A stretch of DNA of 64,000 nucleotides from Kiritimatiellia bacterium (GCA_045536845.1 JAZSOG010000025.1:159993-223992), one strand, 5' to 3'; numbered from the stretch's first letter, positions 4,912 to 28,875 are shown. The notes: generated from the letters alone by a model not told the origin. A program made the numbers and translations.

Positions 4912-5065
4912 GAAAGGCTTTCCAGATTATGCGATAATATAGGCATCATGAAAACAGCAAGCAAGGGACTTGAAATCTCATGACACTCTGCACGCTTTTC
5001 GCCGGCGCACACCTCGCCTATGCGCTTGGAGAAGCTTTCATAAAGTAGCAACAAGGATCCTAGAA

Positions 5066-6541
5066 ATGAACATGACAAGAAGAACTGCATTGAAGGGGCT
5101 GGCGGTGGCATCGTCGCTGTCGCTCTTTAACATAGGCTGCGCGAATTTCGGCATGAGCCGGGCGCGGCAGATCGCGAAGGGGTCGAAGATTCGCGTTGCG
5201 CTGATCGGGTGCGGGCTCCAGACGGCGAACATGATCGACGGCGTTCTCTGCGAGGACCTTGTCGCGATTGTCGATCCGGACCCGGCGCGGTTGGCGTGGC
5301 TGGACAGGCATGTCGCCGACACGTGCGGCGCGGCGGAAAGGGAGAACTACGCCAAGGCGCGGCGCTTTGCGACTTACCAGGACATGTTCGAAAAGATGGG
5401 CGGCGAGATAGACGCCATCGTCGTTGAGACGCCGAACCACCAGCATGTCCTTCCCGCCGTAATGGCGATGCGGCGCGGAATCCACGTCTATCTCGACAAG
5501 CCGCTTTGCCTCACGGCGGCGGAATGCGATCTCATTCTCGCGGAGGCGCGGAAGAACCCCGGGCTCGTCACGCAGTGCGGAACTTACGGGCACTCCTTCC
5601 CGTCGATGAAATATTGTGTCGACCGCATCGCGGAAGGGGCGCTTGGCGAAGTGCGCGAGGTGTGGGCGTACGACGACCGCTGCAACTCCATATACCAGCG
5701 CCCCGCGGCAGTTCCGCCGCCGAAGGGCATGGACTGGGACCTTTGGTGCGGCGGCTCGCCCGTATGCGACTTCTATCCCGAGAGCCCCGACCAGGATGGA
5801 ATGCATCCGCACGGTTGGCATTCGTGGATCGGCTACGGCAACGGTTCCATCGGCAACCTCGGCATGCACATCATGGATGTCGCGTTCTGGGCTCTCGGGC
5901 TGAAGGATCCTGACACCGTGAAATGCCACGAGGCGAAGTTTGCGCTTGACGGCGCATGGGCCTATCGCGACGCCTTCGAGTTCCACTACCCGACGTCGAA
6001 GTTCGGCTACGATGTCACGATGCACTGGTGGGACGGGCTCAACGACGGCGTTCCGTACGACATGGCGCACGTCAACAAGTACGGCGTTCCCCACAAGCGC
6101 GAATGGCTGAACATACCGCCGAAGGTGCTTGAGGTCGAGAAGGCCAACGGCTTTGAGAACGATCCTTTCTACAAGAACGGAATACTCTTTATCGGCACCA
6201 AGGGCAACCTCTGGTTCACGCACCACGGCGGCTACCGCTTCATGCCGCGCAAGAACGGCTGGTGCATGCCGCGCGTCGACAGACCGGACGACTTCAACTA
6301 CCGCATTGTCACGCCGAAGCACTTCCACGAGTTCTACGAGGCAATTCGCGCGGGAGAGCAGACGATAGACAACTTCGAGTACTCGGTTCCGCTTGCAAAG
6401 ACGGTCTGCCTCGGCAACATCTCCGCGCTTGCGGGGAAGGGAAGCGTCCTCAAGTGGGATGGACATCATGTCACGAACAACAAGGAGGCGGATAGCCATG
6501 TCACCCAGGACTATCGCAACGGGTGGAATCCTTTTGCTTGA
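5066..6541 (+). CDS. Gfo/Idh/MocA-family oxidoreductase with twin-arginine (Tat) signal
   Basis: MTRRTALKGLAVASSL Tat signal; Rossmann IRVALIGCGLQ; ETPNHQH motif; 491 aa. Confidence 0.85.
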   Translation: MNMTRRTALKGLAVASSLSLFNIGCANFGMSRARQIAKGSKIRVALIGCGLQTANMIDGVLCEDLVAIVDPDPARLAWLDRHVADTCGAAERENYAKARRFATYQDMFEKMGGEIDAIVVETPNHQHVLPAVMAMRRGIHVYLDKPLCLTAAECDLILAEARKNPGLVTQCGTYGHSFPSMKYCVDRIAEGALGEVREVWAYDDRCNSIYQRPAAVPPPKGMDWDLWCGGSPVCDFYPESPDQDGMHPHGWHSWIGYGNGSIGNLGMHIMDVAFWALGLKDPDTVKCHEAKFALDGAWAYRDAFEFHYPTSKFGYDVTMHWWDGLNDGVPYDMAHVNKYGVPHKREWLNIPPKVLEVEKANGFENDPFYKNGILFIGTKGNLWFTHHGGYRFMPRKNGWCMPRVDRPDDFNYRIVTPKHFHEFYEAIRAGEQTIDNFEYSVPLAKTVCLGNISALAGKGSVLKWDGHHVTNNKEADSHVTQDYRNGWNPFA

Positions 6542-6758
6542 GGTCGCGCTCGCGAAGGCCAAGGCGCTCGGCTACCGCGAGGGAATCAATCGCCTTTCGT
6601 TCGATGCGCCGCAGGACCGCTACGCCGGGCAGCTCAAGGAACTCGCGCGCATAATACGCGGCGAAATACCCAACCCGCCGGAGCTTTACCTCCACGACCT
6701 TAAGGTACACAAGGTGTCGCTCGACGCCTGCAACCTCAAGACCGAAGACATTAAGTGA
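6393..6758 (+). CDS. hypothetical small ORF (uncertain; may be remnant)
   Basis: TTG-initiated ORF overlapping 3' end of Gfo gene in another frame; plausible part starts MSPRTIATGG at ~6498; no recognisable domain. Confidence 0.2.
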   Translation: MQRRSASATSPRLRGREASSSGMDIMSRTTRRRIAMSPRTIATGGILLLEVALAKAKALGYREGINRLSFDAPQDRYAGQLKELARIIRGEIPNPPELYLHDLKVHKVSLDACNLKTEDIK

Positions 6759-7540
6759 TCGCGATCCTGGCAGCAGGCGTTCTCTCTCCGTTTTTCCTCG
6801 AAGTGACGCCCGAGGTGCGTTCGACCTACCAGTCCTTGGGCAAGATCGTCGAGGACCGTCCGATGCAGATCACGAACGTCCGCGCCGGATACGACGCGGG
6901 CGAATTCGGGCGTTTCGGTATACGCAACTGGGACGTAAGCTCTCTCACGGACCGACGGCACGACGCGCATCGCCACGCTCTCTACCACACTGAGTTCGGC
7001 CTGACATGGCAATACGGCTTCGACATCGCCGATGGCTGGCGGCTAAAGAGCGATATCACGCGCTCATGGACGATCTACCGAGGCTTTAAAAGCGGCTATG
7101 CGTCGTCGAACAGGACCTATTCGTGGTGGCAGATCGATCAGGAACTGTCAAATCCGTATATCGTGCCGTTTTACCGCTTGCGCAAGTGCTTTCACGGAAA
7201 CGACTATCTGTACTTCAGGGCAGGCGCGAAAAAGAAATTCACTTTCCTCGATGACTTCTATTTGACGCCGAGCGTGTATGTAGATGGCGGAAGTAGCCGC
7301 AACTACCGCCGTGCGATTGGCACGCGTCCCGACGGCAAACGGTGGCATGACGGTGTGTCGTCCATAACATTTCGGCTGGAGCTGGGGTGGACGGTTTCCG
7401 AGAATGTGTCCGCGTTCGTGTTCGCTGAGCAGTACGAGGTAGTGGGGCAGGCCGCACGCCATGCGATTGAGTCGAGCTCATACCGTTGCGCGCATAAAGA
7501 CTGGACACATGGCGGCATTGGCCTTCGTCTTCGCTTTTAA
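6755..7540 (+). pseudogene. possible outer-membrane beta-barrel gene remnant (no signal peptide)
   Basis: Alternating beta-strand pattern, aromatic-rich, C-terminal ...GIGLRLRF (terminal Phe typical of OMPs) but GTG start and no signal peptide; in-frame with upstream fragments separated by stops. Confidence 0.3.
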
Positions 7541-7636
7541 TCTAGAACGCAGCATCGAAAAATTTTTTCGGAAAAACTGCGGAAGGTGCACCTTTACCTT
7601 GCGGCGGAAAAGAACCGCCAGAAGGGAAGGTGCGAT

Positions 7637-9295
7637 ATGAACGACGACAAATATACTGAAAAAGGATTCTTCCGCAGGCTTTTTGAAATGTTTCAAGGCC
7701 TTAGGATGCCTCGAGATACGCGCGAATACAAACTTGCGCGAATTGAACTCCAGCGCCTCTCGGCGCCTCTCACGGCGATTGTCGTGCCGACTTTGTTTGG
7801 CATAGTTCTCTGTGTCGTGACGGCTATTTCGTCGCAGAGGACAGAATTGCCGCCCGTGGACATTGCAGATCCAATTGTGGATGAGCCGCCAATCGAGGAT
7901 CCGCCTGTGCCGGAACCAGAAGAGATTCCCCTGCCGGATGAACCCATTGAGTTTACTGTCGACACTCCGGATCCTGCGCCTGTCACGCCGCTGCCGCCGT
8001 CGCCCATCCAGACGCGCTCGACGGATATCTCCGTTAAGCCTGCGCCGATGGACGCCGTGCAGAACATAAAATCACCCGTGACTTTTAAAAGCATAAACGG
8101 AGGCCGCACCCCAGGAACGATCGGCATAGCGACGAGCGGGCGCGACAGCGGCGGAGGCGATCCGCATACCGAGGCGGCGGTCATGAAGGTCCTCTGGTGG
8201 CTCAAGGCGCATCAGAACACCGACGGCAGCTGGGGGACTGCGAACAAGGTCGCGAACACCGGCTTTGCGATTCTTACATATCTCGCGCACGGCGAATATC
8301 CAGGAAGTCCGTCGCCGTACAAGCGCGACTTTGGGCCCACCGTGCAGATGGCGCTCGACTACCTGATCGGCTGCATCCACACTGGCGCGGACAACGTGCC
8401 GCACTTCACGGGGACTGACGGCAACGAATACAGCTTCCTCATCGCGACCTACGCGCTCTGCGAGGCGTATGGCATGACGAAGAACCCGAACTGCAAGGAG
8501 GCGGCAGAGCAGTGCCTCTACCGCATCGTCGAGAACCAGTCCTCTACCGGCGGCTGGGACTACAAGCTGAACAGGAACTCGACGCGAGACGACCTCTCCT
8601 TCGCGGGATGGGCGATTCAGGCGCTCAAGGCCGGCAAGATGGCGGGTCTTCACCATGAAGGCCTCCAGACCGCGATCAACAAGGCGGTCAACTGCCTCAG
8701 GCGGCGTGGATACTCGAAGTCCGGCGGCTTTACATATACGCCGACGGCAAACAACAACGGCGGCAACACCGGTCTCGCCGGAGTGGGTGCGCTCGCGATG
8801 CAGTTCCTCGGGCACGGCACCGACCCCGAGGCGCTGAACGCGCTTGACGTGATGCGCGACTGGATGCCCGCGTTCGAGGCGGGCAAGGTCGCCGCGAAGA
8901 GCCCCGGCGGGAGCCCTCAGTACTACTGCTACTACGCGACGCAGTGCAAGTACCAGGCGGGCATGAAGGCGGGCGCGACGAAGCAAGACGTCGATTCGTG
9001 GGTGAAGTGGAATCTCGCAATGAGAAAGCTCTACCCTGCGTCGATCATCGACCTCCCCGAAAAGGTCGCGGATGTCAACGGGAAGGGGCACGCCCAGGGG
9101 TACTACCAAAACAACGACGCGCACTCGACCCGTCCCTACATGGACACGTGCCTCGCGGCTCTCCAGCTGATGGTCTACTACCGCTATCTTCCGACGACGT
9201 CGACGAAGGCGGGCGCGGACGATGCTGGCGAAAACGCCGACGGCGTCAATGGCTTCGACAGCTCCAAGGACGTCCCGGTCGTCGTATCCTTGTGA
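7637..9295 (+). CDS. prenyltransferase/squalene-oxidase-repeat (terpenoid cyclase-like alpha/alpha toroid) membrane-anchored protein
   Basis: N-terminal TM helix (LTAIVVPTLFGIVLCVVTAI), Pro-rich linker (PPVDIADPIVDEPPIEDPPVPEPEEIPLPDEP), then repeats with QNTDGSWG / NQSSTGGWDY motifs. Confidence 0.7.
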   Translation: MNDDKYTEKGFFRRLFEMFQGLRMPRDTREYKLARIELQRLSAPLTAIVVPTLFGIVLCVVTAISSQRTELPPVDIADPIVDEPPIEDPPVPEPEEIPLPDEPIEFTVDTPDPAPVTPLPPSPIQTRSTDISVKPAPMDAVQNIKSPVTFKSINGGRTPGTIGIATSGRDSGGGDPHTEAAVMKVLWWLKAHQNTDGSWGTANKVANTGFAILTYLAHGEYPGSPSPYKRDFGPTVQMALDYLIGCIHTGADNVPHFTGTDGNEYSFLIATYALCEAYGMTKNPNCKEAAEQCLYRIVENQSSTGGWDYKLNRNSTRDDLSFAGWAIQALKAGKMAGLHHEGLQTAINKAVNCLRRRGYSKSGGFTYTPTANNNGGNTGLAGVGALAMQFLGHGTDPEALNALDVMRDWMPAFEAGKVAAKSPGGSPQYYCYYATQCKYQAGMKAGATKQDVDSWVKWNLAMRKLYPASIIDLPEKVADVNGKGHAQGYYQNNDAHSTRPYMDTCLAALQLMVYYRYLPTTSTKAGADDAGENADGVNGFDSSKDVPVVVSL

Positions 9296-9296
9296 G

Positions 9297-9309
9297 AAAA
9301 TGGTATAAT
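9297..9309 (+). promoter_or_regulatory. extended -10 promoter AAAATGGTATAAT, leaderless (ATG 9317)
   Basis: TGgTATAAT ending 7 nt before ATG. Confidence 0.5.
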
Positions 9310-9316
9310 TAGGGCG

Positions 9317-10141
9317 ATGGGTGATGAGTTCACATGGAACGACCGCTACGCTGGCGACGAGGCCTGGACCGAATGGTTTGAAATCTGTTCGGTCGACCTC
9401 TGTCGCCCCGAGTTCGCCGCTCGGCTGCGCGAGCAGGTTTCCGCTGCGCTCTACTCTCGCCTCGCCCGCGCCGGAATCTCGCGCGAAGACGCGGGTGGCG
9501 AAGACCCTGTCGCCTTCTTCGACTCATACTTCAAGCTCAAGGGCTCGCGCGAGAAGAAGAAACCGCTTAAGTCCTACTTCGCCCACCGCATCAAGGACGA
9601 GGGCCTCGAGATGGTCGACTTCGTCTGCGGCACTCTTTTCGGCTCCGGCTCGGGCCGCGTCCGCGACATCGCCCTCGACTGGATATCGGTCATCAAGGGC
9701 TGGAAGCCGCGCACTGTCGCAGGAGAGGACGGCCGACGCCGTCTCGTGTGGGAGAACGCGGGGGACGCTAATCTCGCGGCCGTCGAGCAGTCGGAAGGGC
9801 CGCAGTCGCTTGACTTCCTCGATGAAGAGCCGCTTCGCGCAGAGTCCGAGCGGGTCATCGCCGCAGTCGCGCAGCGCGCGCGCCTTGCGCAAGACGCCGC
9901 CTCGCTTCTCGTCTACGCCACATCTCACGACATCTCGCTCACCGAGCCCTGCATACTCGCCGCGCTTGGCGCCGGGAAGTCGCAGGCTTACGCCTTGCGG
10001 GAGAAGGTCGTCGCGGCGCTTGAGCGGGAGCTTCGCGAAGTCGAGCTTGCGGACACGCCTCTTTTCGCGCGCGTCCTCGTCGCTGCAGCCGCGGCGCATT
10101 TGCCGCGCGACCTTCAAAAAGAACTGGGGGTGGAAGAATGA
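9317..10141 (+). CDS. hypothetical protein; C-terminus resembles sigma-70 region-4 HTH (speculative)
   Basis: 274 aa, leaderless start directly after TGGTATAAT; C-terminal DISLTEPCILAALGAGKSQAYALREKVVAALERELRE HTH-like; overlaps next gene by ATGA. Confidence 0.5.
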   Translation: MGDEFTWNDRYAGDEAWTEWFEICSVDLCRPEFAARLREQVSAALYSRLARAGISREDAGGEDPVAFFDSYFKLKGSREKKKPLKSYFAHRIKDEGLEMVDFVCGTLFGSGSGRVRDIALDWISVIKGWKPRTVAGEDGRRRLVWENAGDANLAAVEQSEGPQSLDFLDEEPLRAESERVIAAVAQRARLAQDAASLLVYATSHDISLTEPCILAALGAGKSQAYALREKVVAALERELREVELADTPLFARVLVAAAAAHLPRDLQKELGVEE

Positions 10142-19064: not shown

Positions 19065-19740
19065 CCTCACGCAGCTAAGGATGCTCGAGGATCTCGACGG
19101 GCTTCTTCTCGTCGACAAGCCCGCCGGGATCGCGTTCTCGTCCGTCGTAAAGACGGTGAAGCGCAAGTTCAACCTCGTGAAGGTCGGTCACGGCGGCTCC
19201 TTGGACGCGATGGCCTCCGGGCTTTTCGTGGTTCTCATCGGCAGCGCGAACAAGTTTGTCGGCGACATAATGGGCGCAGACCGCTCGTACACGGGAACGA
19301 TGAAGTTCGGAGAGACGACAGATACGGGTGACCGCTATGGAAGGCCGATTCCTCTTCCTGGACGCGTGATGAAGCCGGAAGAGGCGAAGGGTGATCTCTT
19401 CCAGGCCGAGCCGCGCTTCTGCGCCGTCCGCCGCGAGGGCTCGGCGCAGTACGACATCGCCGACACGGGCGAGCACACTCAGTTTCTCGCGCATGTCTAC
19501 CGCTTCGAGGTCGACGAGAAGGATGCGTCTTCGGGAGAGTCCGCCTTTTCGCTCGTCGCCTCGAAGGGCGTGATAGTGCGCGCGCTCGCGCAGGACCTCG
19601 GCGCGACGCTCATGTCGCTCAGGCGCACGAAGATCGGCAAGCTTTCCGTTGACGACGCGATACCGTTTGACAAGCTCCTCGAAACAGACGTCGGGAACCT
19701 CCCGTCATGCGTAGTGCCGATTTCCAGAGCGTTGCGGTAG
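19057..19740 (+). CDS. truB: tRNA pseudouridine(55) synthase
   Basis: GLLLVDKPAGIAFSSVV...KVGHGGSLDAMASGLFVVLIG TruB signature; overlaps rbfA end. Confidence 0.9.
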   Translation: MANLTQLRMLEDLDGLLLVDKPAGIAFSSVVKTVKRKFNLVKVGHGGSLDAMASGLFVVLIGSANKFVGDIMGADRSYTGTMKFGETTDTGDRYGRPIPLPGRVMKPEEAKGDLFQAEPRFCAVRREGSAQYDIADTGEHTQFLAHVYRFEVDEKDASSGESAFSLVASKGVIVRALAQDLGATLMSLRRTKIGKLSVDDAIPFDKLLETDVGNLPSCVVPISRALR

Positions 19741-20543
19741 GCTTCTTCGACGGCGTCCACTTGGGGCACCAGTCCATACTGAAGGGCGCCGAGGCGGCGC
19801 TTACTTTCCGCAATCACCCGCTGGCCGTCCTTTCGCCCGACAGGGCGCCGCGGCTTTTGATGGACGCCGAGGAACGCCTTGCCGCGATCCGCTCGTGCGG
19901 CGTGGGCGAAGTCGTTGCGCTCAATTTCACGCCGGAGTTTGCTCGGCTTTCTCCAGAGGAGTTTCTTGCGATGGCGGGGATCACGCGCAAGGTAAAAGTC
20001 AGGTGCGGCGACAACTGGCGCTTCGGGCGCGGCGGAGCTGCCGACGCGACTTGGCTTCGCGCGCACGGGTATTCGGTCGAAGTCATCCCTGCCGTGGAGT
20101 ATCGCGGCGAAGCCGTTTCCTCGACGCGCATCCGCGCCGCGCTCGAGCGTGGCGAGGTCGAGGACGCAGGGGCGATGCTTGGGCGTCCGTTCGAGGTGCG
20201 CGGCGAGGTCTTCGCGGGGAAGGGCGAGGGTTCGCGTCTTGGCTATCCAACGGTGAACTTAAAGCCGAGTTCGCTCAACATTCGGCTCCCGCTCGGCGTC
20301 TATGCGGCCGAGGTGGGCGGAGTGTGCGCAGTTGCAAATTATGGCCTCGCGCCGACGTTCGGCGAGCGTGCGTGGGAAGAGCCGGTCGTGGAGGTTCATT
20401 TTCTGCGGCAGGCGCCTGATGTGCAGGGCGATGGCTTCGCGGAAGTGAAGCTTCTCCGCTTCCTGCGCCCGGAGCGCAGGTTTGATTCTCTCGATGCGCT
20501 TAAATCACAGATCGCGCGCGACTGCGCAGCGGCATTGGCGTGA
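19707..20543 (+). CDS. ribF: bifunctional riboflavin kinase/FMN adenylyltransferase
   Basis: VAVGFFDGVHLGHQSIL FAD-synthetase N-domain, C-terminal riboflavin kinase domain (GYPTVNL). Confidence 0.9.
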   Translation: MRSADFQSVAVGFFDGVHLGHQSILKGAEAALTFRNHPLAVLSPDRAPRLLMDAEERLAAIRSCGVGEVVALNFTPEFARLSPEEFLAMAGITRKVKVRCGDNWRFGRGGAADATWLRAHGYSVEVIPAVEYRGEAVSSTRIRAALERGEVEDAGAMLGRPFEVRGEVFAGKGEGSRLGYPTVNLKPSSLNIRLPLGVYAAEVGGVCAVANYGLAPTFGERAWEEPVVEVHFLRQAPDVQGDGFAEVKLLRFLRPERRFDSLDALKSQIARDCAAALA

Positions 20544-20629
20544 CGCTGCTACGGTGGTTTGCGGCTACATGACCTTAATCGACTCTAGCTGTCTCTTACT
20601 ATATTTCGTCCGCACCGTAATCTCATTTC

Positions 20630-20759
20630 GCTGTGCTTGATTTCAGCGTGGCAGTTTCGCTATAATACCCCCAACGCCGTTGATAATGAGGAATGTGGAA
20701 GAAAACATCGGAATGGGCGACAAAGACAAAAAGAGCAACACCAAAGGGGTGTCTCCCCA
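20630..20759 (+). repeat. island boundary repeat R1 (promoter TTGATT-18-TATAAT + conserved leader + GGGGTGTCTCCCC hairpin)
   Basis: TTGATTTCAGCGTGGCAGTTTCGCTATAATAC...AATGAGGAATGTGGAAGAAAACATCGGAATGG...AAAGGGGTGTCTCCCCA. Confidence 0.7.
20637..20666 (+). promoter_or_regulatory. sigma70-type promoter in repeat R1 (TTGATT-18 nt-TATAAT)
   Basis: -35 TTGATT 20637-20642, -10 TATAAT 20661-20666; identical arrangement in R2 (26189-26218). Confidence 0.55.
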
Positions 20760-21642
20760 GCGGTCCAAAGTCGGTGCGCGGCGCTGGTATGGCGCGGCGC
20801 GAGGGCTGGCAATCATTCTCCCATTCGAATTGGTTTTGCTGCCGTTCATGATCATGGTGTCTGCCTATCTTCCGCTTGCCATCGTGATTGGTGCATCGCT
20901 TGTTGGCTTGGCGGTTCCCGGCCGGCCACATGTTGGAAAGAGCGCGTGGAGGACTGCTCGAGAGTCGATGGTGTGGATTCTTGCCGCGCTTAATATCGTA
21001 GTCGTTGGGGCCTGTTTTTATTTCACTACCGGTTTCTTCGGTATTGCCTTAAACTCGGGTTTCGAGTCGGCTGTCAAGGATGCAGACCGTATAGTTGTGC
21101 GTGACGGCGGCGGAAGATGGAGTTCCAACCCGGAGAAGGATCATGTGCTCTTTGAGATAACGAACAAGGCGGAGATTGCGACATTCAACGAAATGTTCAG
21201 GTTTTGCGAGCGAGAATTGTTGCAATGCAAATGTAGCGGATATCCTGGCATCGACTGGTGGCGCGACGGACAGCGCATCGCGGTGGCGGGGATTCACCAT
21301 CGCCGTAAGCTCCGCGTTACCGGCATAAGCGGAGACTTGTGTTTCACCGGCGAATCAGGGTGCCGTGTCCAGGATTGGCTCGAAACGCATTGCGGGCTTA
21401 CGCAGGGCGACAATTCTCCGCGGTATCGTCGATGCATGATGGCTCGTGCGATAATTGAGAGTGAGGCGCTTGGTCGGGCGAAGACCAACGAAGGCAGGAA
21501 GCCGACGCTTGACGAGATTCGCGATGAGTTCAAGAAGAACGGGAAAGAGTTTCCGAAGTGTCCGGCCGGCGGCGAATATTCGCTTACCTTCGGCGAGGAT
21601 GGAACGCCGATGGTCAAGTGCACGGTTCCTCGCCATGATTGA
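20686..21642 (+). CDS. island membrane protein A (4 TM + Cys-rich soluble C-domain), N-terminal conserved leader MRNVEENIG..KGVSP
   Basis: Preceded by repeat R1 promoter; TM segments LAIILPFELVLLPFMIMVSAYLPLAIVIGASLVGLAV and MVWILAALNIVVVGACFYFTTGFFGIAL; no known domain. Confidence 0.5.
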   Translation: MRNVEENIGMGDKDKKSNTKGVSPQRSKVGARRWYGAARGLAIILPFELVLLPFMIMVSAYLPLAIVIGASLVGLAVPGRPHVGKSAWRTARESMVWILAALNIVVVGACFYFTTGFFGIALNSGFESAVKDADRIVVRDGGGRWSSNPEKDHVLFEITNKAEIATFNEMFRFCERELLQCKCSGYPGIDWWRDGQRIAVAGIHHRRKLRVTGISGDLCFTGESGCRVQDWLETHCGLTQGDNSPRYRRCMMARAIIESEALGRAKTNEGRKPTLDEIRDEFKKNGKEFPKCPAGGEYSLTFGEDGTPMVKCTVPRHD

Positions 21643-21655
21643 CAATCGGATGCGG

Positions 21656-21680
21656 CGCGGCGGATTTGCCGCGCTTTGCG
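21656..21680 (+). terminator. GC hairpin + T-tract (intrinsic terminator-like) after island gene A
   Basis: CGCGGC-GGATTT-GCCGCG CTTTGCG; a related hairpin GCGGC-GCATTTG-GCCGC occurs at 26169-26184 after gene E. Confidence 0.4.
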
Positions 21681-21690
21681 TCATGGGGAT

Positions 21691-21702
21691 TTGTGATATA
21701 AT
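21691..21702 (+). promoter_or_regulatory. island cassette promoter TTTGTGATATAAT (copy 1)
   Basis: GGATTTGTGATATAATACGGTGCATGATGAAACTGCGCG; ~40-nt block repeated at 24893-24935. Confidence 0.5.
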
Positions 21703-21747
21703 ACGGTGCATGATGAAACTGCGCGCGAGCACATGAGGTCTGGTGCT

Positions 21748-22770
21748 ATGAATGATTTGAAAAAGCCTTTGCCGGTCAAGATCGTCGAGACTCTGGGCTG
21801 GATATATGTCATGCTGTCAGTCCTGTTGTTTATACTGGCGATTGTGAATGCGTGTCGAGGTAGCGGCGAGTCGTTGTCCGGCATTCTCTTTGCCGTGCTG
21901 TTTGGACTTTGCCTGCTGTCGCTGCCAGTTGGCATGGTTTTCGCGCTGCGGCTCGGTAGGCGCACGTGGTTCCTTGTGCCGAATACGATTGTCATGAGTC
22001 TTTGTCTGATTGGCGCAATAGAAGCGCTTTGCAGCTCCGCGACGGCATTGCCATTCGTGCTTTTGGCGTTGCTTTTTGGAATCGGGCCGATGGTCCTTCT
22101 CTTTTTGCCGTCGTCAAGTCGGTGGTTCAATGAAATGTCCGGCGATGACTCTCCCAGCCCTTTCGGATGTGCCGGTATAGTTGTAGTAGGAGTGCTCTGG
22201 TTGGCTTTCGTCGGACCGTGTTTGTCCGAGATGTACTTTAGTAAGATAGGGATGCAAAATGCTTTGTCCCACGCGATGGCAGGGCGCGGACGAGCATTGT
22301 GGGGCTGCATTGTTTTCAACCATTCACGCGAATCTGGAAAAGATTGGGTTGACGCCTCTTCTTGCACGAACTCGACGCAGTTTGTCCAGGCGCTGTGGGC
22401 GAAGCTTGGCGAAGACAAAGCCCCATGCCCTTATCCAGACAGTTGGTGCATCGCCGTAAATCCTCCTGACAATGACAAATTCCCTGTAATGGTCACGGCG
22501 AACATCGATCCGCGCGAACTGCTGTGTTCTCAGGACAAGGACCAGCCCTTGAAGCTGACATGTCCGAAGGAGTGGGGCGGCACCTGCTTCAAGTTTTGCG
22601 AGAAGGCGGGTGTGATTGTCTACAAAGGAGGAGCCTCGCAAATTTTTAGAAATAAGTATGTGCGTCCAAGTTTGATATTCAATGACGGCATACCAAAGCC
22701 CGGCCCCGACACCTATTTCCTGACCCCGACCGGCCGCGTGGACATCTGTACCGCGGGTTCAAGAAACTAA
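21748..22770 (+). CDS. island membrane protein B (5 TM + Cys-rich C-domain)
   Basis: Start chosen at MNDLKK after GAGG RBS; five hydrophobic helices; C-terminal domain with 12 Cys; preceded by TTTGTGATATAATACG promoter module. Confidence 0.5.
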   Translation: MNDLKKPLPVKIVETLGWIYVMLSVLLFILAIVNACRGSGESLSGILFAVLFGLCLLSLPVGMVFALRLGRRTWFLVPNTIVMSLCLIGAIEALCSSATALPFVLLALLFGIGPMVLLFLPSSSRWFNEMSGDDSPSPFGCAGIVVVGVLWLAFVGPCLSEMYFSKIGMQNALSHAMAGRGRALWGCIVFNHSRESGKDWVDASSCTNSTQFVQALWAKLGEDKAPCPYPDSWCIAVNPPDNDKFPVMVTANIDPRELLCSQDKDQPLKLTCPKEWGGTCFKFCEKAGVIVYKGGASQIFRNKYVRPSLIFNDGIPKPGPDTYFLTPTGRVDICTAGSRN

Positions 22771-23336
22771 TGAGCGAAGTTCGGGAGAGTCTGCTTTGCA
22801 AAGCGGGCCGGCTGGTCCGTCGTAGGCCAATTTTGTGTGTTGCGTCGACGTTGGTCTTAGCAGTGGTCATTGTGGTCGTGGCTTTTGTAGCTTACGCCGG
22901 CTATTTTGTGTATCGGTTGCATGTTTTGCATGGCCAACGTGTCGAGAAGACATTTGTTGCTTTGGAAGGCTACGGGGGTGCGGATGCCTTTTATGAAAAA
23001 TGCAAGAAGATTGCTTCGCGCTTGCCGTTTGACGAGGGCATGTCATTTACGGGCATGCGATTGCGGCAAGGCGATTCTTCGACAGAAAATGGGAGATCGA
23101 ATGACGTGGGTTGCATATGGCGGGAGCTGTCGGAATTGGATCCTCAGTATGTGGTGAAGGAATCCGGCAGCAAATGTCTTGTGATTCAGGTGTCGGGCGG
23201 GTTCATGCACATGGGGCTTGTTGTCGCGTTAGGCGACGACTATCTCGGCACAGACAAGTTCCCGGCGGTGTGGGATGCGTCTGGCGATTGGAGCTGGAAA
23301 AGACTGGGCAAATATGTGTATTGGTACGAGGAGTGA
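22770..23336 (+). CDS. island membrane-anchored hypothetical protein C
   Basis: N-terminal TM ILCVASTLVLAVVIVVVAFVAYAGYFVY; start overlaps upstream stop (TAATG). Confidence 0.45.
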   Translation: MSEVRESLLCKAGRLVRRRPILCVASTLVLAVVIVVVAFVAYAGYFVYRLHVLHGQRVEKTFVALEGYGGADAFYEKCKKIASRLPFDEGMSFTGMRLRQGDSSTENGRSNDVGCIWRELSELDPQYVVKESGSKCLVIQVSGGFMHMGLVVALGDDYLGTDKFPAVWDASGDWSWKRLGKYVYWYEE

Positions 23337-23362
23337 CTTTCATTATTGACATGAGGCTGGCT

Positions 23363-23400
23363 GGGACATTGGTGGGGACATTGGGACATTGGGGACATTG
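23363..23400 (+). repeat. microsatellite (GGGACATTG[G])x4
   Basis: ctGGGACATTGGtGGGGACATTGGGACATTGGGGACATTGGgg. Confidence 0.8.
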
Positions 23401-23412
23401 GGGAGACACCCC
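23400..23412 (-). repeat. REP-like hairpin GGGGTGTCTCCCC (minus orientation) upstream of transposase
   Basis: Plus strand reads GGGGAGACACCCC; other copies at 20746-20758(+), 24414-24426(+), 24704-24715(+, 12/13), 26290-26302(+). Confidence 0.5.
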
Positions 23413-23792
23413 ATTTTCGTTTCGCTTTTCAGCGCCGATTTTGCCCATTGTCGCCGCTTATCGCAATTTCCCCAGGTTTCCCCCTTGCCTTTTCTCGCCC
23501 ATTATGCGATAATCCTTCCGTTCCTCGGAATTGAACACCGTTGGCGGACGGATACAAGGGGGAACCATGGAGAGTCTGCGGGTTGAAACGCCAGTAGTCC
23601 TTGGTCATCGTGCCGAGGGTGTTGATCGGCGGAACCGCAGACACCGCGTCGCGCGAGGGCTGGCTGGCCCGCAGGCCGCCGGAAGGCGGTGCACAACGCG
23701 CGCGGACTGGCCCGGCATGGCCCATTCCAGATTGCCGAACGCATGGCCGCGTGGCCGTGCGCATTCGGAAACTGCAATCGGAGGGCCACCAA

Positions 23793-24620
23793 ATGGCAAG
23801 AACGGCAAGAGTCAAGAGCGTTGGCGAGGGAACGGCGTACTATCACCTCGTTTCCCGCGCCAGCAACAAACAATTCCTATTTCGGAAATCAGCGGCGAAA
23901 GACCGCCTTGCGGAACTCGCTCGGAAGGCGGCCGAGTTCAGCGGGATCAAGCTTGTCGCATTCGCCGTGATGGACAACCATTACCACATACTCTGCAAGG
24001 TTACGCGCAGCTGCGACCCGGTTCCGCAGGAAGAGGTTGTCCGGCGTGTGGGCATCCTCAAGGGGACAAAGGCTGCTGAGTTTCTTGCGGAGCACTGGAG
24101 GGAGCTTGCGGCTGCGGGTTTTGACGCGACGCTCCAGTCCGAGCTCGGCCGCTACCGCGCACGCATGAACGACATAAGCGAGTTCATGAAGACGATGAAG
24201 GAGCTCTACGCGATATGGTACAACCGCGAGTACGACTACAGCGGCAGCATCTGGAGCGGTGTGTTCAAGTCGACGATGGTCGAGGGAGGCCGATACCTTG
24301 AGTACTGCCGCCGGTACATCATGATGAACCCCGTGCGTGCCGGGATTGTGTCGCAGGTGAAGGACTATCGCTGGGTTTGTGGCGCAGAACCCGAAGAAAC
24401 GGAAGGCTTCGCGGGGTGTCTCCCCGAATGGAGCGTGACGGCGAGGGTGGCGCAGGTCGGGGCGGGGAAGATCTTCGGCAGCGAGGCGTTCGTGCGGAAG
24501 TGGATAGACGGGCTCGGCGACAAGTTCCCCGCGGCGCGGACGGCGGCGCACGCCGTGGGGCGCATCGGCTTTTCGTCGCATGGCTGGCGGCTGGCGAAGA
24601 GGGACGAAAGGGCGGCATAG
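23793..24620 (+). CDS. IS200-like HuH (Y1) transposase / REP-associated tyrosine transposase-like
   Basis: HuH motif MDNHYHILCKV; downstream IWSGVFKSTMVEGGRYLEYCRRYIMMNPVRAGIV typical of PF01797-like transposases; 275 aa. Confidence 0.65.
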   Translation: MARTARVKSVGEGTAYYHLVSRASNKQFLFRKSAAKDRLAELARKAAEFSGIKLVAFAVMDNHYHILCKVTRSCDPVPQEEVVRRVGILKGTKAAEFLAEHWRELAAAGFDATLQSELGRYRARMNDISEFMKTMKELYAIWYNREYDYSGSIWSGVFKSTMVEGGRYLEYCRRYIMMNPVRAGIVSQVKDYRWVCGAEPEETEGFAGCLPEWSVTARVAQVGAGKIFGSEAFVRKWIDGLGDKFPAARTAAHAVGRIGFSSHGWRLAKRDERAA

Positions 24621-24703
24621 GCGGAATGCGGAAGAAATGAGACGATGCGCAGGGGAAAAGTGAGGGAAAGGAGCGGAAAGAGAATGAAAATAGGCGCTGC
24701 CTG

Positions 24704-24715
24704 TGGGGTGTCTCC
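24704..24715 (+). repeat. REP-like hairpin copy (GGGGTGTCTCCC) downstream of transposase, inverted relative to upstream copy
   Basis: Lies 84 nt after transposase stop; forms inverted pair with copy at 23400-23412. Confidence 0.45.
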
Positions 24716-24898
24716 CTTGGGCCACTACACTCGTTGCGCTTCCTTGGCCCGTCGTGGCGGCAAGGCTCGGCGGGCATCGCGAGGCGCGCGCCGGAGTCTA
24801 CTGCTGCGGCAGCAGGTCTGTCTTTAGGATGGCATTGCTACGCTTTAGATCGAACGCCAGCGTGCGCCCCAAGACTTCGCCTATAGCTTCCTTGGAAT

Positions 24899-24910
24899 TT
24901 GTGATATAAT
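24899..24910 (+). promoter_or_regulatory. island cassette promoter TTTGTGATATAAT (copy 2), 7 nt before ATG of gene D
   Basis: GGAATTTGTGATATAATACGACGCATGAGGAAAATGCGCG. Confidence 0.5.
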
Positions 24911-24917
24911 ACGACGC

Positions 24918-25397
24918 ATGAGGAAAATGCGCGAAAGCTTGTGGAATCGGGCTCGTTGCCTTTTGGGCTTGATTGCTGTCTGCGCCATGCCTTTTTTCAT
25001 TGTCGGCCTTCTGTTTGCAGATGAACTGTCGTTTTGGAGAATGGCGTTGGCTTATGCGATAGCGGTATGTTCGCGGCAGGGGTTCAAGTTGGCGTTTAAT
25101 GGACGAAGGAAGGTGTGGCCTATAGTTGCTGCATGTCTGTTGCTGCCCATTGCCATTATCTGTGCGGCATTTGTCGCGTGGCGTCCAGAGCATTGGGCGG
25201 TTTGCGGGTGTGGTCAGCCGTTGGATTACATCGTTCCGGCGCAGTTCTATCCTGGCCCCATTGTCTCGGCGGGAATATTGATTATCGCGTCGCTATGGTG
25301 CGAGCATGACGCGTTTCGCGGGCTTGGTGCAAAGATTCTTTTCTACGCGGCTTGTATGGTGATGGCTTGGTTTGCGTTGAATTTTGCCGAGCAATGA
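24918..25397 (+). CDS. island membrane protein D (4 TM)
   Basis: Leaderless start 7 nt after TTTGTGATATAAT; four hydrophobic helices; no known domain. Confidence 0.45.
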   Translation: MRKMRESLWNRARCLLGLIAVCAMPFFIVGLLFADELSFWRMALAYAIAVCSRQGFKLAFNGRRKVWPIVAACLLLPIAIICAAFVAWRPEHWAVCGCGQPLDYIVPAQFYPGPIVSAGILIIASLWCEHDAFRGLGAKILFYAACMVMAWFALNFAEQ

Positions 25398-25435
25398 AAG
25401 ACACCTTCAGTGACATGCCCAGCGGAACTTAGCAG

Positions 25436-26110
25436 ATGAAAAGAAGAAAGCAGAGATGGTGTTGGCGAATGGACATGGATGTCTTGCGCTGTGTTTTGTT
25501 CTTTTCATTCCTTGTCTTGTTGCTTGCGGCGCTGGGATTGTTGGTAAATGGCATAGTGATTGTGGTGAGGATGTGTCTGCGCGGTTCTGCATTGGGCTTT
25601 GTACTCTTGGCGGCGGTAATCTTGCCCGTCGCTGGTTTTTTCATTGTGCGACGTATTCTGAGAAATCGGGAGCTCAATTCGCTGTTGTCGCGGGGTGTCG
25701 ACTTCGGGTTGAAGGCCGAGTCGCTTCAGATGGTTGACGAGATCATCGAGAAGCACGGGAGGCGCTGTCGCCGGACGGTGGCATTAAAGGCGGAGATCGC
25801 GCCGATGGTTCGATCAATCACCAGTCGCTACAATTCGATTCGCCTCGGGAAGAAGACGGTTTTTAACAGTCATGATCTGCGAACGGGCGTGTCGGGCGGC
25901 TTCAAGGGACGCCCGGCTGACAGTTATTTTGCAATTGCATATGAAGACGAGTCTTGCTATCTTGTCAAATGTTCGCCTTCGGATGAAGCAATATACTACG
26001 ACGAGTACGAATGGATGCGCGAGCCGATTCCATATGCGAGCGACATCCGCCACTATATAGCTTTGCGCTATCAGGAGCTGATGGGGCCTGACACCCGAAA
26101 CCGCGCTTGA
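25436..26110 (+). CDS. island membrane protein E (2 TM + soluble C-domain)
   Basis: TM helices VLFFSFLVLLLAALGLLVNGIVIVV and FVLLAAVILPVAGFFIV; start possibly 25469. Confidence 0.45.
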   Translation: MKRRKQRWCWRMDMDVLRCVLFFSFLVLLLAALGLLVNGIVIVVRMCLRGSALGFVLLAAVILPVAGFFIVRRILRNRELNSLLSRGVDFGLKAESLQMVDEIIEKHGRRCRRTVALKAEIAPMVRSITSRYNSIRLGKKTVFNSHDLRTGVSGGFKGRPADSYFAIAYEDESCYLVKCSPSDEAIYYDEYEWMREPIPYASDIRHYIALRYQELMGPDTRNRA

Positions 26111-26185
26111 TTCCCTTGTGTCGGTTTTGCTGAACCAACTACGTCTTCGGGTGAGAAGCCTAATAGTCGCGGCGCATTTGCCGCG

Positions 26186-26303
26186 CACTTGATTTCAGCG
26201 TAGCAGTTTCGCTATAATACGCGCACCACCTTGAAATGAGGAATGTGAAAGAAAACATCGGAATTGACGATAAAAAGTGCAACGCCAAAGGGGTGTCTCC
26301 CCA
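26186..26303 (+). repeat. island boundary repeat R2 (copy of R1)
   Basis: TTGATTTCAGCGTAGCAGTTTCGCTATAATAC...AATGAGGAATGTGAAAGAAAACATCGGAATTG...AAAGGGGTGTCTCCCCA. Confidence 0.7.
26189..26218 (+). promoter_or_regulatory. sigma70-type promoter in repeat R2
   Basis: TTGATT 26189-26194, TATAAT 26213-26218. Confidence 0.55.
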
Positions 26304-26388
26304 TTTGATCCAAGAGTCCGCGCCAGAGGCGGACGAATATGATGACTGGGACACATGGGATCAGCGCTTCAAGGCTTTGCTGGGCTGA
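26236..26388 (+). CDS. 50-aa ORF carrying the conserved island leader MRNVKENIGIDDKKCNAKGVSP
   Basis: Driven by repeat R2 promoter; first 23 codons ~85% identical at nt level to start of protein A; acidic Trp-rich tail DEYDDWDTWDQRF. Confidence 0.3.
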   Translation: MRNVKENIGIDDKKCNAKGVSPHLIQESAPEADEYDDWDTWDQRFKALLG

Positions 26389-26542
26389 TTTCGCTCGGAA
26401 CAGCCGGGGACACGATAGGCCCGTTTTTCGCCTGTTCGCCGTAGTTTTGGCGAAGGTGGATGTCTTTCGTGTATTTCGTGGTTAATCCTCCGCGGCGCAT
26501 TCCCCCAAAAAATTGTGAAACGCCAAGTCGCATTAGTGTGGA

Positions 26543-26554
26543 TTATGCTATAAT
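26543..26554 (+). promoter_or_regulatory. -10 element ATGCTATAAT, near-leaderless phosphohexomutase start 26564
   Basis: TATAAT ends 9 nt before ATG. Confidence 0.4.
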
Positions 26555-26563
26555 TATCTCGAT

Positions 26564-27937
26564 ATGGGATTCTTCAAGGCATACGACATGCGCGGCACCT
26601 TTGGTGTCGACTTCGACCTCGATACAGTCTACAAGGTGGGGCTTGCCCTGCCGAAAGTAGTCAAGGGAAAACGCTGGCTCGTGGGGCGCGACTGCCGCAC
26701 GACGAGCGACGCAGTTCACGATGCGCTCGTGAAGGGGCTTTCCGAGTCTGGCGCGGGAGTGAGCGACTTGGGGCACTGCACGACGCCGATGGTCTACTAC
26801 TTCACCGCCGCAGACGGCTTCGACGGCAGCGTGATGATCACCGCCTCGCACAATCCGCCGACGGACAACGGCTTAAAAGTTTCAAAGGCGACAGCGCTCC
26901 CCGTCGGCTACGCGAACGGTCTTAACGAAGTTGAGCGACTGGTCGGCGAAATGCAGTCGACGGCCGACGGCCGAAGGCCTTCGGTGAAGGATCTTCCCGA
27001 TGCACTTTCGCGCTACATCGCCTGGCAAAAAGGCCGTGTCAGCACCGCAGCGCTTTCTGGGCTAAAGTTCGCCGTGGACTGCTCGAACGGAATGTCCTCG
27101 CTTTTCGTACGCGAGATGTTCCCGGATGCGGTGCTGCTCAACGACACTCCCGACGGGACCTTCCCCGCCCATTCCCCGAATCCGCTCAAGGCCGAAGCGC
27201 GAGAGCAGATTGCCAAGGTTGTGCGCGAGAAGGGGCTTGACTGCGGCGTCATATTCGACGGCGACGCAGACCGCGCGATGTTCGTCGACGAGCGCGGCGA
27301 ATTCGTCCAGCCTGACTATTTGATTCCAATTGTGGCGAGAGCCACGATGGGAAGTGAAGAGTTAAGAGTTAAGAGTGAAGAGTTGGGGAAGGCCAAGATA
27401 ATTCATGATGTAAGGACATCGCGCGGCGCGATAGAGACGTTGCGCGAGGACGGCTTCGAGCCGGAGATGGTTCCTGTTGGCCATGCCTTTGCAAAGCCGA
27501 TCCTTCGCAAGATTGGCGCTCTTTGCGGCGGTGAGCTTGCGGGGCACTACTACTTTTCGGAGTTCTTCGGGTGTGACTCCGGTCTTCTCGCGGCGACGCG
27601 CATCCTCGGCGAGATCGCGAAGGCGAAGCAAGCGGGAAAGACTTTCTCAGAGATGATGAAGCCGATAGTCTCGCGCTACGCCAACTCGGGCGAAATCAAT
27701 TTCAAAGTTGATGATAAAGAAGCGGCCATCGAGCGCGTTCTCGCTGTCGCGAAGTCGCTTGGCGAAGAAACCGGCCGAAGCGAGATAGACGGCTATCGCC
27801 TTGAATACCGCGACGGCTGGATTTCCGTTCGCAAGTCCAACACCGAGCCGTATCTCCGCCTTCTCGTCGAATGTCGGACAAGGGAAATGCTCGACAATCG
27901 GGTTGGCCGTCTCTCTGACGCAATTGAGGGGAAGTGA
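26564..27937 (+). CDS. phosphomannomutase/phosphoglucomutase family protein
   Basis: Active-site TASHNPPTDNG; 4-domain alpha-D-phosphohexomutase layout; contains heptanucleotide repeat insertion (GSEELRVKSEELGK). Confidence 0.9.
   Translation: MGFFKAYDMRGTFGVDFDLDTVYKVGLALPKVVKGKRWLVGRDCRTTSDAVHDALVKGLSESGAGVSDLGHCTTPMVYYFTAADGFDGSVMITASHNPPTDNGLKVSKATALPVGYANGLNEVERLVGEMQSTADGRRPSVKDLPDALSRYIAWQKGRVSTAALSGLKFAVDCSNGMSSLFVREMFPDAVLLNDTPDGTFPAHSPNPLKAEAREQIAKVVREKGLDCGVIFDGDADRAMFVDERGEFVQPDYLIPIVARATMGSEELRVKSEELGKAKIIHDVRTSRGAIETLREDGFEPEMVPVGHAFAKPILRKIGALCGGELAGHYYFSEFFGCDSGLLAATRILGEIAKAKQAGKTFSEMMKPIVSRYANSGEINFKVDDKEAAIERVLAVAKSLGEETGRSEIDGYRLEYRDGWISVRKSNTEPYLRLLVECRTREMLDNRVGRLSDAIEGK
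27354..27381 (+). repeat. heptanucleotide tandem repeat (T[G/T]AAGAG)x4 inside phosphohexomutase gene
   Basis: TGAAGAGTTAAGAGTTAAGAGTGAAGAG encoding SEELRVKSEEL. Confidence 0.7.
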
Positions 27938-28806: not shown

Positions 28807-28875
28807 CGGTGATGCATTGGGGAGAGACCCTGTTTGAAGTTGCTAATTTGCACTAAACTTGATAATTTTGTTAAG

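Follow-up and report, generated by a model that had tools for sequence, protein, structure and literature searches.

In a 64,000-nt stretch of DNA from a Kiritimatiellia bacterium (GCA_045536845.1 JAZSOG010000025.1:159993-223992; referred to below as the window, in whose numbering positions are given), the gene of a membrane protein, termed protein A, and a 50-aa open reading frame (ORF) begin with copies of the same repeat, which we call the module. Over ~125 bp, the module consists of a predicted sigma-70-type promoter, a purine-rich leader of ~45 nt, an ATG, nine Lys/Asn-rich codons, a small hairpin resembling those of repetitive extragenic palindromic (REP) sequences, CAAAGGGG-TGTCT-CCCCaTTTG, and ATTTGATC. 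A gene between the two copies encodes a Y1 transposase similar to the REP-associated tyrosine transposases (RAYTs). We believe that the module is probably a REP-like, transposase-associated and portable source of promoter and start codon, that the Y1 protein acts at its hairpin, and that a rearrangement hotspot lies 3' of it. The modules form a repeat family with a sharp 3' boundary, are fused in frame to unrelated genes and are conserved at the nucleotide level, and the type of their hairpin is paired with the type of transposase. A REP-like hairpin is built here into a unit that would equip at least 13 unrelated genes with a promoter, a start and an N-terminal tail, with junctions precise to the base.

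Four copies of the module, A to D, were located in the window, with the following features.

20636-20767, plus strand: module copy A (R_A), located by nhmmer and by alignment with copy B
20637-20666, plus strand: predicted sigma-70-like promoter of copy A, TTGATT-18-TATAAT
20746-20758, plus strand: hairpin GGGGTGTCTCCCC of copy A, read as GVSP; -5 to -6 kcal/mol as a single-stranded DNA hairpin
20710-21642, plus strand: gene of protein A, a membrane protein with a Cys-rich C-terminal domain; start at ATG2 (or at ATG1, 20686)
26188-26311, plus strand: module copy B (R_B), with promoter at 26189-26218, ATG1 at 26236 and hairpin at 26290-26302
26236-26388, plus strand: 50-aa ORF, a chimera of module B and the last 26 codons of a ~135-aa gene
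23391-23486, minus strand: diverged module copy C, upstream of the transposase gene and pointing away from it; hairpin at 23400-23412
23363-23399, minus strand: (CCCCAATGT)n, a microsatellite-like reiteration of the 3' flank of the hairpin of copy C, described in the first-pass annotation as a Pro/Cys tract
24634-24721, plus strand: degenerate module copy D, directly after the transposase stop codon; hairpin GGGGTGTCTCCCT at 24705-24717

Copies A (20636-20759) and B (26188-26303) match in 106 of 124 aligned columns (85.5%), corresponding to 91% over ungapped columns and to 84% from the ATG to the hairpin, with only background similarity in the 100 nt on either side. Both carry the predicted promoter TTGATT-18-TATAAT, with a promoter score of 10/12. 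The first-pass annotation, made from the sequence of the window, had reported a ~85% identical leader behind the same promoter sequence in protein A and in the 50-aa ORF, with GVSP codons coinciding with the hairpin, and these observations held up. A profile hidden Markov model was built from 80 module copies outside the window and run on the window by nhmmer, which returned E-values of 2.3e-33 for A and 2.2e-32 for B, 1.5e-12 for C (23395-23471, minus strand), and a marginal 0.076 for D (24653-24716). Copy A reads in order promoter, purine-rich leader, ATG1 (20686), ATG2 (20710), a 6-nt tandem duplication (GACAAA), hairpin, and the junction with protein A; in copy B, ATG2 is changed to ATT and the 3' end is CATTTGATC. 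Some copies, which we call H-type, have a longer hairpin, CAAAGGGG/CCCCaTTTG, with a bulged A.

Two weaker relatives of the leader had also been pointed out. They are diverged copies of the module, namely C and, marginally, D; as peptide-coding leaders they did not stand, since both flank the transposase gene and the ORF through C is not conserved, its ATG being absent, or a stop lying 4-9 codons past the hairpin, in many relatives. Copy C is found at the same position in all close loci, and the place of copy D after the transposase stop codon is kept in six loci, including L008, L009, L019, L057 and L101. On the plus strand, copy C gave a terminator-like call (TGGGGAGACACCCCA+TTTTCGTTTC), and in this direction it looks like a terminator for the protA-B-C genes.

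Allowing for at most 1 mismatch, GGGGTGTCTCCCC occurs at five sites in the window (20746+, 23400-, 24413+, 24705+ with 1 mismatch, and 26290+), compared to 0.05 expected, and five sites were reached in 0 of 100 shuffles. All of them are inside a low-GC island of 6 kb (~20544-26563; 52-55% GC versus 62-66% in the flanks), and the 64 kb have no other GGGG-N5-CCCC site. The island is bordered by ribF (19707-20543) on one side and by a phosphomannomutase gene (26564-27937) on the other, and contains unannotated membrane-protein genes and the single Y1 transposase gene. The closest proteins and loci to the window come from rumen and gut metagenome-assembled genomes (MAGs) labelled Kiritimatiellae or Lentisphaerae.

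Metagenomes were scanned with the pattern AACNNNAAWGGGGTGTCTCCCCA, which demands the exact hairpin. At least 80 loci were obtained, all in rumen-type assemblies, and together the metagenome and genome loci gave 138 hairpin sites and 82 distinct module copies; these and the family counts below are counts among the matches listed. No match to the hairpin arm (0) was returned by a scan of viral_contigs. Column conservation was 0.6-0.8 from the -35 box, rose to 0.9-1.0 towards the hairpin, and collapsed to 0.3-0.4 beyond ATTTGATC, so that the conserved zone ends 8 nt past the hairpin. TATAAT is present in 49 and TTGATT in 38 of the 82 copies. ATG2, 27 nt before the hairpin, is found in 74 of 82 copies compared to 40 of 82 for ATG1 (the start of MRNV), which is otherwise ACG, ATA or ATT; MRNV is thus not the conserved start, as had first been assumed. 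Length variants between ATG2 and the hairpin comprise five in-frame changes (+6 or +9 nt) and two -1 frameshifts among the 82 copies, and conservation is not confined to the promoter and hairpin with frame-breaking indels, the pattern by which the first-pass annotation would have recognised a noncoding repeat. To count as putative mobile promoters, sequences preceding non-homologous genes have to be 80% identical or more over 50 nt or more (PMC3575422). With 85-91% identity over 124 nt between A and B, and 82 copies placed before at least 13 unrelated ORF families, the module falls within that definition.

The fusion of the module to its cargo was evaluated with 74 distinct copies having at least 450 nt downstream. 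ORFs of at least 100 codons run through the hairpin in frame 0 in 32 of the 74, compared to 3 in frame +1 and 10 in frame +2, and when each distinct long cargo family is counted once, about 13 of 20 are in frame (binomial P against 1/3 = 0.004). Among 13 in-frame families, BLASTP found no similarity (best E 0.09), which agrees with the initial description of one leader placed on unrelated ORFs. Hydrophobic segments were found within ~60 residues of the junction in 12 of the 13, some of them with a lipobox-like Cys. Searches of Pfam and NCBIfam with the island proteins and ten cargo proteins left nearly all of them unannotated, the exceptions being Metallophos and a CarboxypepD_reg-like domain. 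GGGGTGTCTCCCC codes for GVSP in two forward frames (GGG GTG TCT CCC and GGT GTC TCC CCn) and for GCLP in the third, and because two of its three frames encode GVSP, this peptide is seen even where the cargo is in frame +2.

In the metallophosphoesterase cargo, the graft can be seen by comparison with a homologue that is 91% identical but has another N-terminus of its own (MARQVQPREFKGMENRLLKIAGNRL... compared to the grafted MGDKNSNAKGVSPHLIKVAGNRL...). At that locus (L085), the module replaces the first ~16 codons of the gene, at the right end of a 4.7-kb insertion (reverse strand 4920-9651) between conserved HAD hydrolase and phosphoesterase genes, as compared with L001 (4603-4658) and L123. 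The insertion carries an AraC-like gene, a 622-aa ORF and a WbsX-like gene, and replaced 56 nt including those ~16 codons; both native breakpoints come after TTG(A/C)T..AAG motifs. Other copies show further forms of the junction. L126 is a derivative with a 63-nt in-frame deletion in which the hairpin and ATG2 are lost and ATG1 is the sole usable start. In L049, L079 and L040 the module is only upstream, the cargo having its own start and signal peptide, and in such upstream-only copies the leader ORF stops after 7-50 arbitrary codons. Copies with AAT before the hairpin have a +1-frame ATG that opens onto ORFs of 618 and 801 codons. Taken together, these alignments indicate that the shared leader is a real graft, conserved as DNA and not as a peptide.

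The junction with protein A was traced in the same way. Many homologues of protein A begin with MATENDNEKGVSPQ..., equivalent to ATG2 of the window at 20710, and those homologues lie 10-15 nt after a gene of the DUF6717 family, without the promoter module; other homologues are without the 18-nt block formed by the hairpin and 5 nt. In copy A, and also in L065, the sequence is that of the module on the 5' side up to the hairpin and that of protein A itself on the 3' side. Homologues of protein A are usually found 9-15 nt after the DUF6717 gene at another chromosomal site, upstream of queH (L001-L007, L009 1144-1470, L123-L125), and the DUF6717 copy of L009 is frameshifted. By gene order, DUF6717 and protein A are evidently a conserved two-gene unit that was moved between islands.

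Rearrangements recur at the same place. A junction between DUF6717 and the hairpin leads to protein A in L005 and to an unrelated 243-aa protein in L055, which amounts to a swap of cargo. In five relatives of the window (L008, L009, L010, L017, L019), alignment and tblastn showed the ~135-aa gene intact behind module B, within ~420 nt which are missing from the window, where the deletion starts exactly after CCCCATTTGATC. The 50-aa ORF, which the first-pass annotation had taken for a stand-alone cargo, is on this comparison a deletion chimera and no conserved gene. The database protein P0071 has an independent second deletion from nearly the same point with another breakpoint, and tandem duplications of the hairpin with its flank were found in L008 (24 nt), L010 (44 nt), L054, P0058, P0070 and P0082. 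The (CCCCAATGT)n tract at 23363-23399 maps to the same side of its hairpin. Judged by these alignments, the few bases 3' of the hairpin are a hotspot for joining, deletion and local duplication.

The gene that connects the hairpin to an enzyme, and the features around it, are as follows.

23793-24620, plus strand: RAYT-like Y1 (HUH) transposase gene, 275 aa (Pfam Y1_Tnp, E=2.3e-14)
24413-24425, plus strand: hairpin copy within the transposase ORF, read A-G-C-L-P-E, another reading frame than that of GVSP
23485-23513, plus strand: promoter-like site for the transposase gene, TTGCCT-17-GATAAT, overlapping the palindromic -10 region of copy C
23517-23792, plus strand: predicted conserved and structured 5' leader (~275 nt) of the transposase mRNA, between the promoter-like site and the ATG

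The HUH motif corresponds to H63-Y64-H65 and the candidate catalytic tyrosine is Y175 (RYIMMNPVRAG), H63, H65 and Y175 being invariant in the alignment; the protein also has a ~60-residue insertion between HUH and Tyr and an extra ~70 residues at the C-terminus. A search of the PDB with the single sequence gave weak matches only, and a profile of 12 sequences gave 4ER8, the E. coli TnpA_REP, as the best match (E=9.7e-5), aligned across the catalytic-Tyr region (...YxxxNPV...). The RAYT model of NCBIfam matched better than the IS200 model, which scored 25 bits against a cut-off of 55. In the window, the hairpins flanking the gene, at 23400(-) and 24705(+), are inverted, with the hairpins outermost, and the same holds for L005-L010, L057, L081 and L093, while L018 has both on one strand. 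A clade of transposases with ~52% identity is bracketed, mostly in inverted orientation, by a hairpin with a different loop, GGGGYCTGTCCCC, GGGG[CT]CTGTCCCC, which is GGGGCCTGTCCCC in L012-L015. The loop is TGTCT with the lineages of 74-97% identity and NCTGT with the ~52% lineage, the intragenic copy included: the hairpin inside the ORF is at the same codon in other lineages, and its loop matches the flanking hairpins of the respective lineage. Across these lineages, then, hairpin type evidently tracks transposase lineage, which is a hallmark of REP/RAYT pairs.

Three lineages of the transposase, with 93%, 74% and 52% protein identity, share the transposase leader as a conserved sequence. Its model has 89 predicted pairs with 97.9% of cells paired, and the predicted structure places the GGAGG Shine-Dalgarno sequence in a paired region. 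We counted 11 compensatory pairs, compared to 3.4+/-1.5 in shuffles (0/500) and 0-3 in slid controls, and found no Rfam match to 23517-23792 (E<=1). On this model, the leader is a well-supported candidate structured RNA and may be a new cis-regulatory RNA of a RAYT-like gene.

Several observations were made on the second hairpin family, GGGG[CT]CTGTCCCC. It has its own conserved 5' arm (..ttttacaacggtttcgc or ..gaaaaacgggcctatcgc), occurs also at the 3' ends of cargo genes, and forms REPIN-like inverted doublets in L002 (2702/2732) and L113 (407/437); further sites are L008 5114 and L009 7047. A remnant is present in the window.

26406-26413, no strand assigned: remnant of a second-type hairpin; relatives have GGGGACAGRCCCC here and the window has a 7-nt deletion

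Arrays resembling clustered regularly interspaced short palindromic repeats (CRISPR-like arrays) were seen in L012 (706-1709) and L013 (6-937), 0.3-2.3 kb upstream of Y1 transposase genes of the ~52% clade, with a ~33-nt repeat containing GTTTCAATTCACGCCCG..GGGCGAC and a period of ~66 nt.

These results suggest the following course of events. The module belongs to a repeat family that brackets, in inverted orientation, a RAYT-like Y1 gene in rumen Kiritimatiellae, and solo copies are dispersed ahead of sense-oriented genes, each supplying a predicted promoter. About 40% of copies would also provide membrane or exported proteins with their start codon and with a short N-terminal tail of positive charge, the remaining copies serving as promoter and 5' untranslated region with a short incidental ORF. 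We infer that the Y1 protein recognises the hairpin in single-stranded DNA and, as E. coli TnpA_REP does in vitro, cuts next to it and joins the strands anew. Such events just 3' of the hairpin would produce the junctions as well as the adjacent deletions and duplications. Selection would then retain junctions from which a useful envelope protein is expressed, either in frame or from the start of the cargo itself. If the Y1 protein does make the junctions, the module would be a tangible example of how a domesticated HUH transposase changes gene expression and generates fusion proteins, and a new route of gene capture, distinct from that of integrons. The substrate would then be a testable one, the 13-nt hairpin plus 8 nt.

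Several points weigh against this interpretation. Promoter activity and the use of either ATG are predictions. The curated RAYT model REP_Tyr_transpos (NF047646) scored 56.7 bits, below its cut-off of 80. A transposase was found in 7 of 80 metagenome loci and in 5 of 25 loci of at least 5 kb. The GTAG/CGTC tag is absent, the 5' flanks being CAAA, AAAT, TCGC or CTGT, and the hairpin is tiny, with a stem of 4-5 bp (8 with the bulge). The insertion at L085 has the module at its right end only, and no second hairpin was found at its left end. A REP sequence would be expected in tens to hundreds of mostly extragenic copies per genome, next to a single-copy transposase; the 13-mer has 5 sites in 6 kb of the window and was not found in the other 58 kb, so that over these 64 kb it does not look like a genome-wide REP. 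The invariance of the hairpin across the 82 copies is an ascertainment effect, because the scan required the exact hairpin. Finally, it is in favour of the interpretation that 66 of 71 copies are fused to, or located at most 250 nt upstream of, a sense ORF of at least 100 codons, yet the class of cargo with its own start is weakly supported because ORFs of this length are common by chance in GC-rich DNA, where antisense controls reach 75-228 codons.

Alternatively, the module could be an ordinary repeat maintained by duplication and homologous recombination or gene conversion. Paralogues and neighbouring loci would have acquired copies of a promoter and 5' end that proved successful, the hairpin would be passive (for example an antisense terminator), and the nearby transposase would share the flanking repeats without a catalytic role. 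Most copies have no transposase on the same contig, and recombination between 125-bp repeats such as A and B, which are direct, could shuffle units without any transposase, which also counts against an active role of Y1. The opposite-strand hairpin with its T-rich run scores as terminator-like, and at the phosphoesterase graft the junction has a microhomology, TTTGNTNAAG, as would be expected from illegitimate recombination. However, homologous recombination makes no new junctions at a fixed point 8 nt past a 13-nt hairpin in front of more than 13 unrelated genes, and a passive hairpin would not lead us to expect a loop type that follows the transposase lineage, the intragenic copy too, or recurrent deletions and duplications anchored at the hairpin. 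We regard a passive repeat as rather unlikely, though plausible.

A more far-reaching version of the Y1-driven module is that the Y1 protein and its hairpin-ended "expression adaptors" constitute a gene-capture system, in which cleavage and strand transfer a few bases 3' of the hairpin would fuse a promoter, a start and a cytoplasmic N-terminal tail onto arbitrary 5'-truncated genes of membrane or secreted proteins. It would be an analogue of the integron platform based on the single-strand hairpin chemistry of a domesticated Y1 enzyme, and the Y1 gene would be controlled by its ~275-nt leader RNA and by the cognate hairpin in its own ORF. We consider this extension doubtful.

The first-pass annotation had left open whether the leader is conserved as a protein or as an RNA. 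In the former case, MGDKKSNAKGVSPHLI would be a selected N-terminal targeting or sorting peptide of envelope proteins, and it is true that ~95% of copies stay in frame from ATG2 to the hairpin, that L126 retains its frame despite the 63-nt deletion, and that in-frame cargo is nearly all membrane or exported, with a tail Lys-rich like the n-region of a signal peptide. The codons themselves tell otherwise. Differences from the consensus in the leader codons were synonymous in 18 cases and non-synonymous in 81, i.e. 18% synonymous compared to 15% expected at random, and entropy by codon position was 0.37, 0.42 and 0.56, or 0.47, 0.70 and 0.57 between the two ATGs. The leader codons thus showed no codon periodicity and no third-position excess, and so no signature of purifying selection; in these alignments we see no sign of selection on the leader peptide. 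The ATG is lost in 8 of 82 copies, the ORF of about every second copy is only 7-50 codons long and has an arbitrary tail, and protein A homologues function without the GVSP block. The hairpin is also read in other frames, as GCLP in the transposase and in +1-frame fusions, and the same 13-mer occurs in non-coding and antisense contexts. Conservation at the protein level is, on this evidence, improbable. When the protein database was searched with the translated leader (40 aa), nothing but short ORFs came back, 37 in number and of 27-70 aa; known long carriers such as P0001 were missed, which makes the search unusable for cargo counts. Those who annotate MAGs of rumen Kiritimatiellae should note that the dozens of "proteins" of 27-70 aa with the start MRKVKENIEMGDKK... 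are by-products of the repeat.

Conservation at the RNA level would mean that leader, short ORF and hairpin act as an attenuator or a translational control of a regulon. The module is at the 5' end of the transcript, its short ORF followed by a hairpin recalls leader-peptide attenuation, and in five relatives the stop codon of the leader ORF overlaps the GTG of the downstream gene. But the leaders of copies A and B folded no better than shuffles (z = +0.91 for one and +0.11 for the other), with only the 4-5 bp hairpin (-7 kcal/mol), and there is no U-tract after it in the sense orientation. The motif is moreover present in either orientation, within an ORF, and at places that have no promoter, and an Rfam scan of the island at E<=1 gave only a chance snoRNA hit. 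With folding z of ~0-0.9 and no Rfam match, the module leader does not behave as a structured cis-regulatory RNA, and the attenuator or riboswitch reading, highly improbable in our view, was dropped.

Expression-site switching by a shufflon or phase variation, in which inversions or exchanges at hairpins would swap the cargo behind an active promoter, is hardly credible: inverted hairpins A and C do share one island, and the layout is like that of Mycoplasma and Ureaplasma systems with a recombination site just after a conserved 5' end (PMC2268961, PMC3047005), but none of the 138 hairpin sites has the reciprocal junctions (module to C flank, or C to protein A), for which inversion was rejected, an A-C inversion in the window would put only antisense sequence behind the promoter, and the variation is between genomes, not within samples.

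The Y1-associated module can be compared with known systems. REP/RAYT systems are widespread, and the module shares with them a Y1/HUH enzyme whose best PDB match is TnpA_REP, short inverted hairpins that bracket the gene, and a lineage-specific hairpin; the inverted doublets of the second hairpin type (L002, L113) are like REPINs. TnpA_REP needs a bulged hairpin and a 5' tag, cuts beside the hairpin at a variable distance, and transfers strands in vitro (PMC3479197). The bulged base of the H-type hairpin is a feature which TnpA_REP binding requires (PMC3479197). Unlike REP hairpins, which require GTAG (PMC3479197, PMC3733652), the hairpin here has no GTAG/CGTC tag and a stem of 4-5 bp, and the RAYT score is below the cut-off. 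The repeat is moreover embedded in a promoter and start module, often inside coding sequence and not extragenic, and one hairpin copy is inside the transposase ORF.

Likeness to IS200/IS605 elements is seen in the Y1 fold, in the ~8-10 nt that follow a subterminal hairpin before the boundary, as at the right end of IS608, and in adjacent deletions that start at the element end. The boundary sequence contains TTGAT, the target pentanucleotide of ISDra2. In contrast to that group, the flanking hairpins are inverted and not on the same strand, and the IS200 score is 25 against 55. We saw no autonomous element that is present in several copies and has a defined end on the left and on the right. 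By the orientation of its hairpins, the locus is not of the IS200/IS605 type.

Closely similar promoter regions before non-homologous genes are shared with putative mobile promoters (Correia, ERIC, REPIN). According to Nijveen et al. (2012, PMC3575422), elements of this kind can reach into an ORF, some Correia elements among them. The module differs from them in that a start codon and a 16-residue N-terminus are donated, that it ends in a transposase-type hairpin, and that its 3' boundary is base-precise.

Integrons resemble it in having one promoter-bearing site before interchangeable unrelated genes and a recombination site that can fold as a single-stranded hairpin. In class 1 integrons, ORF-11 is a short platform ORF that can provide translation initiation for cassettes. 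Genes led by the module in tandem (L077, L101, L112 and the window) add to this likeness. Unlike integrons, the system here has no tyrosine-recombinase integrase and no attC, each cassette has its own promoter module, the enzyme is of the HUH class, and the junctions compared are static.

In Mycoplasma vsa/Vpma and Ureaplasma MBA, the bodies of lipoproteins or membrane proteins vary behind a promoter and 5' end that are conserved, the two parts meeting inside the ORF (PMC2268961, PMC3047005). A conserved 5' end that gives way to other sequence at a short site early in the ORF is likewise seen here; those systems, however, use tyrosine recombinases and high-frequency clonal switching, and the cargo of the module is mutually unrelated. 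By analogy, the module would work like a mobile promoter with REP/RAYT features, integron-platform-like in outcome.

Other repeats were observed in the window. A weak, degenerate copy of the hairpin arm, AGCAAC..AGGGTCTCTCCCCAATG (AGCAACTTCAAACAGGGTCTCTCCCCAATG), is located at 28812-28849 on the minus strand (nhmmer E=0.038), outside the island and just past a gene ending at 28806. A GC-rich palindrome, GCGCGGCG-NATTYGCCGCGC, followed by a T-rich run, is present in 5 copies, 78-100% identical, at 10610, 11912, 21655, 26167 and 28014 (plus strand). It stands 3' of several genes, with one copy directly upstream of the -35 box of copy B, and has the appearance of an intrinsic terminator. Two unrelated genes are preceded, at 21678-21730 and 24886-24938 (plus strand), by another shared promoter-and-start module, TTGTGATATAATAC...GCATGAKGAAAMTGCGCG, 81% identical over 53 nt. 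The latter copy gives, at 24918, the real start of a 159-aa protein (MRKMRES...), and the former, at 21710, only an 8-codon ORF ahead of a gene starting at 21748.

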